From Polyangiales bacterium (GTDB lineage Bacteria; Myxococcota_A; Polyangia; Polyangiales; Polyangiaceae), in assembly GCA_038231275.1 (NCBI GenBank), contig JBBRLQ010000003.1:108340-172339 (forward strand): DNA of 64,000 bases. Direction: 5' to 3'. This document shows positions 37,434 through 46,028 of this stretch, piece by piece. The stretch's first letter is position 1. Each line of letters opens with the position of its first letter. The position numbers and the translations under genes are program-made. Below the pieces are notes generated by a model. That model ran no database searches. It had not been told where the DNA came from and saw only the letters and a list, made by a program, of their open reading frames with translations.

Positions 37434-40400
37434 GTGGACGGACGTCTCGTCATCGCTGAGCGCTTCGAGATCGAGCACCTCGTCGGTACGGGCGGGATGG
37501 GCGAGGTCTTTCGTGCGAAGGACCGCCTGACGGGCGGCCCGGTCGCGATCAAGCTCTTGCACCCCGGGATGACGCGGGATCAGGAGCGCTTCCGGCGCGA
37601 AGCGCAGCTGTTGGCCGAGCTCTCGCACCCACGCGTCGTTCGCTACGTCGCGCACGGCATCGCGAGCGGCGGGCGACCCTACATCGCGATGGAGTGGCTG
37701 GAGGGGCTCGATCTCTCCGATCGTCTCTCGCACGAGGGATTCACGCTGGACGAGGCGGTCACCCTTGCGCGGCGCGCGGCCGAGGCGCTCGGCGCATTGC
37801 ACGAACGCGGCATCGTCCACCGCGACGTGAAGCCCTCGAACCTCTTCCTCGTTGGCTCCGATCTCCACAGCGTGAAGCTGCTCGATCTCGGCATCGCGCG
37901 GCTCTCGACGCCGACGCGGCCGGCGACGCGCAGCGGGGTCATGGTGGGCACGCCGGGGTACATGGCGCCCGAGCAAGCGCGCGGCGCCAAAGAGATCGAC
38001 GCGCGGGCCGACGTGTTCTCGCTCGGCTGCGTCCTCTTCGAGTGCATCGCGGGGCGACCGGCGTTCGTGGGGGACAACGCGGCAGCGCTCCTCGCCAAGA
38101 TCTTGCTCGACGAGTCCCCGCGCATCCTCGACTACCGGAAGGACGCGCCGCCGGAGCTCGACGATCTCGTGTCGCGTATGCTGGCGAAGCATGCGGGCGC
38201 GCGTCCGGCCGACGGGCACGCGGTCGCGCGGGAGCTCGCGCAGATCGCGCGCGGCGGGCTCGATTCGCAGCGGCGGAGCAGCATTCGTGCGCTGCGCGCG
38301 ATCACCGGCGGGGAGCGGCGCCTCGTGAGCATCGTGATGGCGTCCTCCATCCTCACGCCGGTCGAGACGCCGGTCGACCTTGCGGCGGAGACGCTGACTG
38401 GCGACACGTCGGTCGCGTCGCTCGACATGCGCAGCGTCGTCGCACCGTTCGGCGCCAAGTTCGAGAGCCTCGCCGATGGGTCGGTCGTGGTGGCCGTGAC
38501 GGGGAAGGGCAGCGCGACGGATCAAGCGGCCCACGCGGCGCGCTGCGCGTTGGCGATTCGCGCGCACATGCACGACGCGCACATGGTCTTGGCGACGGGC
38601 CTCGCGACGGTGACCGATCGCACGCTCTATGGCGACGTGCTCGATCGCGCCGCGGCGCTGCTCGTCGAGGCGCGACGGGCCTTCGCGCAGGTCGGGCCCG
38701 ACGGGACCGTGAAGAGCGCGCCGCTCCCGCTGCCGGTGCGCCTCGACGAGACGACGGCGGGCTTGCTCGATCTCCGTTTCGACGTCGAGGGGGACGACCT
38801 AGGGCTGACGCTGCGAGGCCCGCGCGCCGAGGAAAGCCCGACGCGGACGCTCCTCGGCATGGCGACGCCGTTCGTCGGGCGCGACCGCGAGCTCGCGACC
38901 CTGCACGGGCTCGTGGAGGAGTGCATCTCGGAGCCGGTCGCCCGCGTCGTCCTCGTGACGGCGCCGCCAGGAGGCGGGAAATCACGCCTCCTCCACGAGC
39001 TCCTCCTCCAGGCGCGGAACCTCCACGACAATGTCGAGGTGTGGCTCGCGCGCGGCGATCCGATGAGCGAGGGCTCGCCGTTCCACATGCTCGCGCAGGG
39101 GATCCGGCGCGCGTGCGGCTCGGTCGAGGGAGAGCCGCTCGCGGTTCGTCGGCAGAAGCTGCGTGCGCGTGTCGCCCGGCACATCGAAGGAGACGAGCTC
39201 ACGCGCGTGACGGAGTTCGTCGGCGAGCTCGTCGGCACGCCGTTCCAGGGAGACACGAGCGTGCAGCTCCGCGCCGCGCGCCAGGACGCGATGCTGATGG
39301 GTGACCAGATGCGTCGCGCGTGGGAGGACTGGATCGCCGCGGAGTGCCTCGCGCAGCCGGTCGTGATCGTCCTCGAAGATTTGCAGTGGGGCGATCTGCC
39401 GAGCGTGAAGCTCATCGACGCCGCGCTCCGCAACCTCTCCGAGCTGCCGCTCCTCGTCGTCGCGGTGGCGCGTCCCGAGGTGCACGAGGTGTTCCCCAAC
39501 CTCTGGTCGGAGCGCGGGCTTCAGGAGGTGCGCCTCGGGCCGCTCGTGAAGAGCGCCAGCGACCGTCTCGTTCGTCAGGTCCTTCCCGACGCCACCCAAG
39601 AGGAAGTGACTCGGCTCGTCGAGCGCTCCGCCGGCAACGCGTTTTATCTCGAAGAGCTGATTCGCGCGGTCGCCGAGGGTCGCGGCGGCGAGCTACCAGA
39701 GACGGTGCTCGCGATGGTGGAGGCACGGCTCGAGCGGCTCGAGCCCGAGGGGCGGCGGCTGCTGCGCGCCGGGAGCGTCTTCGGGCAGGTGTTCTGGCGA
39801 GGCGGCGTCGCGGCGTTGCTCGGTCAGTCGCTCCGCGCGAGCGAGGTCGACGAGTGGCTCGGCGAGCTCGTCGCGCGCGAGATCCTCCTCCAGCGACGCC
39901 GCTCGAAGTTTCCAACGGACGCCGAGTACGCGTTCCGGCACGCGCTGGTGCGCGAGGCGGCGTACGCGATGCTGACGAGCGAGGATCGCGCGCTCGGGCA
40001 CAAGCTCGCCGGCGAGTGGCTCGAGGAGGCGGGCGAGACCGACGCGGTGGTGCTCGCCGAGCACTTCGACCGCGGGGGCGTGCCCGCGCATGCGGTGAGG
40101 TGGTACCGCCGCGCCGCCGAGCACGCGCTCGAGGGAAATGATTTCGAGGCGGCGACGGCGCGCGCCGAAGGGGCCATCGCGGCGGGCGCGGCGGGCCAGG
40201 AGCGCGGCGCCTTGCGGCTGCTCCAGGCGAGCGCGGCGGACTGGAACGGCGACACCGCCTCGGCGATTCGCTTCTCCGAGGAGGCGCTGCATGATCTCAC
40301 TCCGGGCACCGACGACTGGTACCTCGCGGCAGGCGAGGTCGCGCTCGCGAGCCGAAAAATGGGCGATTTCGAGCGCGTCAACGCGGTGGGCCGCGCGGTG

Positions 40401-44678: not shown

Positions 44679-46028
44679 ATGTGGCAGAGTGTCGCGATGA
44701 CCCGCGCAGGGAAACCGCCGCTCTCGGCGCTGGAGACCGTGCCCCACGAGGGCGACGATGGTCTCTCGCTGCGCGTGGACGGTCCGAGTGGCGCGCGCTC
44801 GTTCACGCTCCCGAAGAGCGGCGAGGTCGCGGTGGGGCGCGCGGACGAGTGCGAGATCCAGGTCGACGACGTGAAGCTGTCACGCCGCCACTTCACGCTG
44901 CGCATCGGCGCGGCGGTCGAGGTCGTGGACGCGGGAAGCCGAAACGGCACGCGCGTGCGTGGGGCGAAGCTCGCGACCGGCGGCTCTGCGCGCGTCCTTC
45001 CGGGCGAGCCGTTCCAGGCGGGCCTGAGCCGCTTCATGGTCATCGGAAGCAGCGCCGCGCGACCCGCAGGTCCGTCGGCGCGGACGAGCCTCGAGCTTGA
45101 GAGCCAGGTGGAGCGCTTCGCGAAGGGCGACGTTCCAGTCTTGATCCTCGGTGAGACGGGAGTGGGCAAAGAGCGCCTCGCGCGATTGCTGCACGCGCGC
45201 TCGCCGCGATCCGCCGGTCCGATCGTCACGGTGCACTGCGGCGCGCTGTCGGAGACGCTCCTCGAGAGCGAGCTCTTCGGCCACGAGCGCGGCGCGTTCA
45301 CCGGCGCGACGGTGACGAAGCCGGGCCTCCTCGAGAGCGCAAACGGTGGGACGGTGTTCCTCGACGAGGTCGGCGACACCCCTTCGGCGCTCCAGGTGAA
45401 GCTCCTCCGCGTGCTCGAGCAGCGAGAGGTCACACGTGTCGGCGCGGTCGCACCGGTCCCTCTCGACGTGCGCTTCGTCGCGGCGACCAACCGCGAGCTC
45501 GAGGAGGAAGTGGCGCGCGGACGGTTCCGCTCGGATCTGTTCTATCGCCTCAACGGCGTTACCTTGCGCGTTCCGCCGCTCCGCGATCGCGCCGAGGAGA
45601 TCCCGGCGCTCGCCGAGACGCTCGCGAAGGACGCGCGCGCTCGGCTCGGATGGACGGCCCAGGGCGCGCCGCTCTCCGAGGACGTGCTGCACGCCCTCCG
45701 CGCCTACGCGTGGCCCGGCAACGTGCGCGAGCTCCGCGGTGTCATCGAGCGCGCGCTGCTCCTCTCCGAAGGCGCGCCGATCGCCAAAGAGCACCTCGCC
45801 ATCGGAGGGGAAGCCCCGTCCATGACGCACGCGGCGCCCGCCTCCAAACGAGCGGCCGCCCCACCGCCGGTGCGATCGCTGAAGGACACGCTGCGCGACG
45901 AGGAGCGCCGCCGGATCGAGGACGCGCTCGAAAAATGCGGCGGGAACCAGACGCGGGCGGCCGAGCTCCTCAAGATGCCGCGCCGCACCCTCGTCGAGCG
46001 GCTGCGCGCGTACGCCAAAGACGAATGA
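44679..46028 (+). CDS. sigma-54-dependent transcriptional activator with N-terminal FHA domain and C-terminal Fis-type HTH
   Basis: An FHA pattern is present (VAVGRADECEIQVDDVKLSRRHFTL...GSRNGTRV). The AAA+ domain has Walker A (GETGVGKE) and the GAFTGA loop. The HTH reads GGNQTRAAELLKMPRRTLVERL. The start may be ATG 44698 instead. Confidence 0.9.
   Translation: MWQSVAMTRAGKPPLSALETVPHEGDDGLSLRVDGPSGARSFTLPKSGEVAVGRADECEIQVDDVKLSRRHFTLRIGAAVEVVDAGSRNGTRVRGAKLATGGSARVLPGEPFQAGLSRFMVIGSSAARPAGPSARTSLELESQVERFAKGDVPVLILGETGVGKERLARLLHARSPRSAGPIVTVHCGALSETLLESELFGHERGAFTGATVTKPGLLESANGGTVFLDEVGDTPSALQVKLLRVLEQREVTRVGAVAPVPLDVRFVAATNRELEEEVARGRFRSDLFYRLNGVTLRVPPLRDRAEEIPALAETLAKDARARLGWTAQGAPLSEDVLHALRAYAWPGNVRELRGVIERALLLSEGAPIAKEHLAIGGEAPSMTHAAPASKRAAAPPPVRSLKDTLRDEERRRIEDALEKCGGNQTRAAELLKMPRRTLVERLRAYAKDE

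Follow-up and report, generated by a model that had tools for sequence, protein, structure and literature searches.

A candidate signalling pair of a receptor-type kinase and an FHA-input sigma-54 activator in a Polyangiales bacterium

Jelsbak, Givskov and Kaiser reportedly described in 2005 a set of 12 genes for FHA-domain sigma-54 enhancer-binding proteins in Myxococcus xanthus, including Mx4885, and are said to have proposed a link of these activators to the abundant Ser/Thr kinases. The idea of a kinase acting on an FHA-type activator has hence been published for M. xanthus since 2005 and is not new. To our knowledge, the cognate kinase of an activator of this type has never been demonstrated, and we found no report in the searchable literature in which one is defined. 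Here, we analysed a stretch of 64,000 nucleotides from a Polyangiales bacterium (assembly GCA_038231275.1, contig JBBRLQ010000003.1, positions 108,340 to 172,339; hereafter ‘the window’), in which the genes of two large Hanks-type kinases, K1 and K2, are followed by the gene of an FHA-input sigma-54 activator, which we call EBP. K2 and EBP turned out to be a pair with a real evolutionary link, such that the unit consists of these two genes rather than of all three. With a probability of roughly 60%, we read the locus as a composite, in which a two-gene Ser/Thr signalling pair, K2-EBP, resides in the convergent spacer behind an unrelated and more widely conserved K1.

EBP shares with the M. xanthus proteins, which come from the same phylum, the N-terminal FHA domain replacing a receiver, the sigma-54 AAA+ domain and the Fis-type helix-turn-helix (HTH), but it represents a different ortholog group and is accompanied by a co-inherited candidate kinase, K2. 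NtrB-NtrC-type systems likewise combine the gene of a sensor kinase with that of an activator having a GAFTGA-bearing AAA+ domain and an HTH as output; they employ a histidine kinase and an Asp-phosphorylated receiver, whereas K2-EBP has a Hanks-type kinase and an FHA domain for phosphothreonine (pThr). For Mycobacterium tuberculosis, adjacency of pknH and embR as well as FHA dependence were reportedly described by Molle et al. in 2003. PknH phosphorylates the FHA-containing EmbR and raises its activity (PMC6213207). Both systems comprise a receptor-type kinase with extracytoplasmic sensor and a neighbouring FHA transcription factor; however, EmbR is a SARP/OmpR-type winged-helix protein with C-terminal FHA domain that acts at sigma-70-type promoters, unlike the AAA+ sigma-54 protein EBP with its N-terminal FHA domain. 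GarA and OdhI carry an ETTS motif and a self-binding switch, which is controlled by PknB and PknG. Like EBP, they have a flexible, threonine-bearing N-terminal tail in front of their FHA domain, but they are single-domain metabolic regulators that bind enzymes and not transcription activators, and the EBP tail (ETVP, with Thr20 as candidate phosphosite) is only about 10 residues away from the FHA core. According to a study referenced in PMC6213207, GarA is recruited via the phosphorylated activation loop of the kinase. How EBPs and Ser/Thr kinases have expanded in myxobacteria has been reviewed, as has kinase micro-synteny (PMC8538405). Each protein of the locus belongs to a large, already named family, and its design is ordinary in myxobacteria and establishes no new principle. 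The position of K2 beside an FHA-type activator despite turnover of the neighbouring genes makes the two a concrete and testable candidate for a cognate pair.

K2 and EBP as an inherited pair

The three genes are the following:

37434-41363, + strand: K1, open reading frame (ORF) of 1309 aa; kinase–STAND NTPase–TPR
41370-44621, + strand: K2, ORF of 1083 aa; kinase–transmembrane helix–WD40 propellers
44679-46028, + strand: EBP, ORF of 449 aa; FHA–AAA+–HTH sigma-54 activator

We searched 5.8 billion proteins for the best non-self relatives of K2 and EBP. P0244 (L083, 3233-6433) is the sole close ortholog of K2 and shares 47% identity with it from end to end, the next relatives reaching 42% at most, while P0002/P0124 are the best relatives of EBP (74% identity, next 65%). 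These best relatives adjoin each other on L083, a metagenomic contig of 13 kb, where they are separated by a gap of 56 nt and divergently oriented, i.e. inverted compared to the window; the fragment L084 stems from the same population. Among 30 window proteins tested, K2 and EBP are the only two with counterparts in L083 (other kinases cross-match the kinase domain of the K2 ortholog), and a K1-like gene is not present there. Thus, adjacency of K2 and EBP is kept among orthologs independently of other synteny in one independent lineage, and no such conservation was found for K1 with either of them. Since the adjacency survives inversion and relocation while all other neighbours change, a functional link between K2 and EBP is suggested. 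A scan of a genome collection with EBP yielded no close ortholog (best 48%), as generic EBPs dominated via the ESELFGHE motif.

The relatives of K1 tell the other half of the story, for which the following features are required:

36196-37365, - strand: DAO-type FAD-dependent oxidoreductase gene (Pfam), divergent from K1; left neighbour kept in L165 and L166
41364-46080, + strand: K2+EBP segment of 4,717 bp, exactly K2 and EBP; absent in close relatives
46079-47005, - strand: gene with FGE-sulfatase domain (Pfam), convergent; right border of the cluster

Close orthologs of K1 were found with 89% (L165), 85% (L166), 75%, 67% (L167) and 58% identity, and neither K2 nor EBP lies beside those at 89%, 85%, 67% and 58%. 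L166 shows the order DJ-1, DAO (-), K1 (+), FGE-sulfatase (-), TetR (-), amidohydrolase (-), with flanks as in the window and the FGE-sulfatase gene directly to the right of K1, so that 14 nt are all that is found at the site of the segment. L165 has the same DAO/FGE-sulfatase/TetR/amidohydrolase surroundings, with an unrelated ORF of 302 aa between K1 and the FGE-sulfatase gene; in L167, K1 is directly followed by a VIT-vWA gene (4294-8547), and the 58% relative is found in a different context again. In blastn comparisons, L165 and L166 are collinear with the window at 82-86% identity up to position 41363 and again from 46079-46081; the junction alignments show that homology stops at the stop codon of K1 and restarts at the stop codon of the FGE-sulfatase gene. 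The K2+EBP segment is therefore a precise indel relative to the close relatives, and the convergent spacer is variable in three relatives, holding K2+EBP, the 302-aa ORF or nothing. Neither direct or inverted repeats nor remnants of insertion sequences (IS) were found to flank the segment, beyond WD40-internal repeats and GC-rich chance matches, and its base composition is that of the flanking genes. An insertion in the lineage of the window would be more parsimonious than the alternative. The close relatives devoid of the pair offer a natural comparison of the states with and without it.

Because orthologs of K1 lack K2 and EBP and the pair in turn occurs without K1, K1 is a neighbour of the K2-EBP pair and not an evolutionary part of it. 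The preliminary description of this DNA, made from its letters alone, had combined the three genes into one signalling module; the link between K2 and EBP survives our comparison, but the inclusion of K1 does not, and we refine the unit accordingly. A single module is nevertheless the first rival to be considered: K1 and K2 would both phosphorylate toward EBP, for example as a cascade or as a two-input gate. The co-directional genes, the gap of 6 nt between K1 and K2 and the lack of terminators speak for this possibility, as does the finding that large STAND/TPR partners adjoin FHA-type EBPs in two other loci, namely L134 (kinase-nSTAND1-FGE-sulfatase, divergent) and L004. We nevertheless consider it unlikely, given the four K1 orthologs without K2 or EBP, the pair without K1 in L083, and the absence of a K1-like STAND region from all 80 loci with K2-like kinases described below. 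Moreover, the K1 family is large and conserved (at least 120 members with no less than 44% identity, each about 1,300 aa long) and occurs in varied contexts.

To see how often kinases and EBPs pair, we scanned for K2-like kinases and obtained 80 metagenomic loci with a total of 738 kb. Four of the five EBP genes in this DNA are of the FHA type and directly beside a kinase. L132 shows a kinase with two WD40 propellers and then an FHA-type EBP, the same order as in the window, while in L117 the FHA-type EBP precedes the K2-like kinase. L134 harbours two divergent kinase/FHA-EBP pairs, one of them with a kinase-nSTAND1-FGE-sulfatase protein (1804-5781, +), and in L004, an EBP-centred locus, a kinase and a TPR protein are followed by the FHA-type EBP. 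Pairing of kinases with FHA-type EBPs in contigs of Myxococcota is hence recurrent, yet far from obligatory.

A second rival, which we judge just as improbable as the single module, holds that the adjacency is functionally meaningless, with EBP reading pThr from other kinases or proteins and K2 having other substrates. Most K2-like kinases and many FHA-type EBPs are indeed unpaired, and in mycobacteria the same FHA proteins are phosphorylated by several kinases (PMC6213207). A kinase neighbour is moreover expected by chance for about one gene in six, as the window contains four Hanks-type kinases among its approximately 45 genes, i.e. K1, K2 and the following two:

14-3286, + strand: further Hanks-type kinase
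51778-53205, - strand: further Hanks-type kinase

With kinases this dense, adjacency to one of them is less significant and by itself weak evidence. Against the rival stand the one comparable lineage, in which both genes stay side by side through inversion and relocation with all other neighbours changed, and the independent recurrence of kinase/FHA-EBP adjacency.

The same chance expectation also counts against our preferred reading of a K2-EBP pair in a composite locus, and further observations join it. Co-inheritance rests on one independent orthologous pair, and the direction of the indel is not rigorously polarised. An EBP is found within 1.5 kb in only 4 of 133 assessable flanks of K2-like kinases, and L085, the next most similar locus of this kind, has none within 10 kb. 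FHA-type EBPs without adjacent kinase occur in L001, L002, L024, L066 and L081; the split of EBP loci into FHA and non-FHA types is approximate, because our custom FHA hidden Markov model missed some domains detectable with Pfam, e.g. in L081. No kinase is present in the visible part of the 6-kb contig that encodes the EBP ortholog P0003 (65% identity); the gene upstream of P0003 is truncated, and searching for K2 homologs neither showed nor excluded that it encodes a K2 C-terminus. Finally, neither a target promoter nor a phosphatase was found.

Domain architecture and proposed mechanism

The domain architectures that the preliminary description had assigned to both kinases and the activator were recovered by Pfam and hydropathy analysis. 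In K2, a Pkinase domain (PF00069) covers residues 43-259 (E 2e-31, 109.6 bits), with the PK_Tyr_Ser-Thr match reaching residue 311, and a WD40 propeller covers residues 727-1075 (Pfam); a further propeller, of degenerate type, spans residues about 440-720. Hydropathy analysis revealed one hydrophobic helix in K2 (341-361) and none in EBP. The resulting topology comprises a cytoplasmic kinase (43-311), a single transmembrane helix and about 720 extracytoplasmic residues, with a conserved juxtamembrane motif, AGQLVAAHRYS. The kinase motifs VALK, HRDLKPAN, DWG and APE are intact, and the variants ARGGQG and DWG are also found in the ortholog; conserved threonines of the activation loop lie in HTRVGAVVGTPAYMAPE. 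The architecture is common to more than 100 proteins with 34-42% identity, some of which, from Polyangium, Cystobacter and Stigmatella, are named ‘WD40 repeat domain-containing serine/threonine protein kinase’. K2 resembles these Myxococcota WD40 kinases in architecture but differs in having one close ortholog only.

EBP is organised as follows:

EBP domains: disordered N-terminal tail, FHA about 29-123, short linker, AAA+ 137-375, Fis-type HTH 401-448

Pfam matches are FHA (PF00498, 51-104, E 4e-9, 37.4 bits compared to a cut-off of 20.7), Sigma54_activat (PF00158, 139-296, E 3e-63, 212.7 bits compared to 20.2) together with AAA_lid_14, and HTH_8 (PF02954, 404-445, E 4e-15). The FHA motifs comprise GR53-54, S68xxH71 and N89GT, and G53, R54, S68, H71 and N89 show either no variation or a conservation of 90% or more in sets of 42 and 122 homologs. 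The motifs of the AAA+ domain, GETGVGK (158), DEV (229), GAFTGA (205-210) and RSDLFYR (284), are invariant in 42 homologs. With its sigma-54 AAA+ domain, GAFTGA loop, Walker A and B motifs, arginine fingers and Fis-type HTH, the protein qualifies as a bacterial EBP, and an N-terminal FHA domain with pThr-binding residues and without receiver places it in the FHA-input subgroup of M. xanthus type. The earlier proposal of an FHA domain instead of a receiver as input thus holds, all canonical pThr-binding residues being kept. FHA-input EBPs are abundant, PF00498 being present in 120 of 120 homologs listed. An AlphaFold2 model of EBP has a pLDDT of 87.7, with values above 90 for the FHA fold and the helices 401-448 and below 50 for residues 5-26 of the tail. 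Within this disordered tail, Thr20 (SALETVP; ETVP/ETIP) has been retained by every ortholog with at least 65% identity. The nearest solved structures by sequence are OdhI/GarA for the FHA domain (E about 1e-6) and NifA, ZraR, FleQ, NtrC1 and PspF for the AAA+ domain (E 1e-55 to 1e-73); no solved chain matches both domains together.

K1 contains Pkinase (PF00069, 11-259, E 2e-45, 155.5 bits), AAA_16 (PF13191, 479-676, E 2e-17, 64.4 bits compared to a cut-off of 32.6) and TPR_12 around residues 1126-1194 (47.6 bits compared to 30.1). An AAA_16-type P-loop, with APPGGGKS as Walker A motif, followed by repeat domains identifies it as a STAND NTPase. The kinase motifs GTGGMG, VAIK, HRDVKPSN, DLG and APE are intact, and hydropathy analysis found no hydrophobic helix in this cytoplasmic kinase. 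Between kinase and NTPase lies a domain that the preliminary description had overlooked:

38274-38870, + strand: middle domain of K1 with the fold of class III nucleotidyl cyclases, residues about 281-479

Pfam finds no match in residues 281-479, which a family alignment shows to be conserved; the family comprises over 100 proteins, each about 1,300 aa long. The AlphaFold2 model of residues 270-480 (pLDDT 77) was used for a Foldseek search, in which each of the top 50 matches was an adenylyl or guanylyl cyclase (E about 1e-5, TM-score 0.45-0.65); the sole sequence match in the PDB is the cyclase 3mr7 (E 0.2). In the canonical class III cyclase motif, strand beta1 carries a metal-binding Asp. 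The beta1 strand of K1, ERRLVSIVMASS, lacks this Asp in K1 and in sampled family members, as judged by eye against the canonical motif, and since the residue is missing, we regard the middle domain as a degenerate and probably non-catalytic cyclase-homology domain. M. tuberculosis PknK offers a comparison as a fusion of the kinase-cyclase-AAA ATPase type. The NCBIfam model TIGR03903 (TOMM kinase/cyclase) spans residues 33-909 of K1 with 243.4 bits, below its curated equivalog cut-off of 705.75, and membership of K1 was rejected; the order of kinase, cyclase fold and AAA_16 is alike, but the fold in K1 is devoid of the metal-binding Asp.

How could K2 and EBP work together? Judged by topology and domains, the two extracytoplasmic propellers of K2 may bind a signal in the envelope or periplasm. 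Upon binding, K2 would autophosphorylate on the activation-loop threonines in HTRVGAVVGTPAYMAPE, by analogy with PknB and PknD. The FHA domain of EBP might then dock on phosphorylated K2, and EBP itself would possibly be phosphorylated, with Thr20 in the disordered tail as candidate site; both steps are modelled on GarA/OdhI and EmbR. Engagement of pThr by the FHA domain could shift the AAA+ domain between non-hexameric and hexameric states, and with the HTH bound to enhancer sites, the hexamer would then open sigma-54 promoter complexes by means of ATP and its GAFTGA loop. Formation of open complexes by an ATP- and GAFTGA-driven hexamer is established for the bacterial EBP family. K1 would add input, if at all, only through its present co-expression with the pair. 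Resting on such analogies, a route from kinase via FHA domain to sigma-54 appears reasonable.

Transcription and sigma-54 sites

The ORFs of K1, K2 and EBP have a GC content at third codon positions (GC3) of 0.86-0.90, as in real genes, in a sequence with 70% GC. As the preliminary description had stated, the genes are co-directional with short gaps, of 6 nt between K1 and K2 (41364-41369) and of 57 nt between K2 and EBP. The latter would amount to 75 nt if EBP started at 44697, matching the 443-aa database entry P0001; the start at 44679 is favoured because the ortholog keeps the MW.S N-terminus. A terminator scan found no terminator-like sites between the three genes. As the gap of 6 nt leaves a promoter of K2 no room outside the coding sequence of K1, co-expression is likely; K2-EBP is probably co-transcribed with K1, and co-transcription of all three genes is plausible. 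The second gap deserves its own entry:

44622-44678, + strand: K2-EBP spacer, 57 nt, with a palindrome inside and without terminator

Its RNA is not unusually structured (RNA fold z = +0.9). It contains a perfect palindrome, GCGAGCACGCTCGC, at 44630-44643, which is not a terminator. Scans of the window with Rfam and for tRNAs gave no matches.

Sites for sigma-54 are not enriched in the window: loose matches to the -24/-12 consensus number 33 compared to 44 expected, and matches to a position weight matrix (PWM) number 16 compared to about 30 in shuffled sequences. We thus concur with the earlier statement that a convincing promoter of this type is missing from the window. The best-placed weak site, CGGCTGATGGCTTGCT (37392-37407, +), precedes the start of K1 by 27 nt and scores 9.4 bits compared to 18.3 for the consensus; it is located on a 9-nt insertion that L165 and L166 lack and was rejected as a conserved sigma-54 site, as the relatives do not share it. 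Just downstream of CGGCTGATGGCTTGCT, a conserved TTCGTGTACGATG resembles the ordinary promoter region. A second candidate just past the EBP stop codon (46113-46128, PWM score 13.2) was discarded since it lies inside the coding sequence of the FGE-sulfatase gene and is identical in L165, which has no EBP.

A bolder extension of the composite reading describes K2-EBP as a self-contained, relocatable cassette, the Ser/Thr equivalent of a two-component system whose output goes through sigma-54; this cassette became wired 6 nt behind K1 into the transcription unit of the STAND kinase; the site on the 9-nt insertion may then give sigma-54 control and autoregulation by EBP to a three-gene operon. We offer this as speculation, doubtful as it is, and rank it somewhat below the two rivals discussed above.

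What a local target might look like is illustrated by L134, a good model locus for finding targets of FHA-type EBPs. There, an FHA-EBP gene is followed by a near-consensus site, TGGCACATGCCTTGCT (7480-7495, -), a ribosome-binding site and an ORF of 212 aa (6779-7417, -), for which Pfam gave no match.

Neighbouring genes

The K2+EBP segment could also belong to a defence or mobile island as its cargo, and the kinases could act as anti-phage effectors, as the content of the spacer after K1 differs among three relatives and the PADLOC kinase models PD-T4-6, mad6 and PglW match both kinases, but this is highly improbable: the matches cover the generic kinase domains only (about residues 4-280 and 41-320), that of EBP is confined to the AAA+/HTH region, which RtcR also has, no PADLOC partner specific to a system was found, and the segment borders show no repeats, integrase or IS remnants and the base composition of the flanks.

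Several gene-sized indels occur in this neighbourhood among genomes with 80-86% identical DNA. A DJ-1/PfpI gene upstream of DAO is absent from the window (36166-36216) and present in L165 (6167-8117) and L166 (887-1747), and L165 additionally has a gene of 320 aa upstream of DAO. The region 33011-36166 of the window has a lower GC content (0.61-0.64) and no ORFs with high GC3, and is 85% identical to L165 3033-6167, where the genes called, of 361 aa and 141 aa, do not match any Pfam family.

FGE-sulfatase domains recur beside or fused with kinases and FHA-type EBPs, namely in the window (46079-47005, -), in L081 (8370-9983) and in L134 (1804-5781). Further to the right, the window encodes a FecR-VIT-vWA-TPR protein of 1416 aa (53401-57651, +), of which a 76%-identical ortholog directly follows K1 in L167. 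K1 and the VIT-vWA gene may thus be older neighbours, between which about 12 kb of variable genes are now located.

To the left, a gene at 30939-33011 (+) encodes a protein of 690 aa homologous to the major vault protein of eukaryotes (MVP; MVP_shoulder, E 2e-32); its residues 150-641 are matched by solved MVP chains (E about 1e-34). This gene is an indel as well, window positions 30817-33010 being absent from L165. Bacterial MVP homologs have been reported in Myxococcales (bioRxiv 10.1101/872010). The presence of a VIT-vWA protein, an MVP-like gene, a STAND NTPase and WD40 proteins in one window is a loose echo of vault components.

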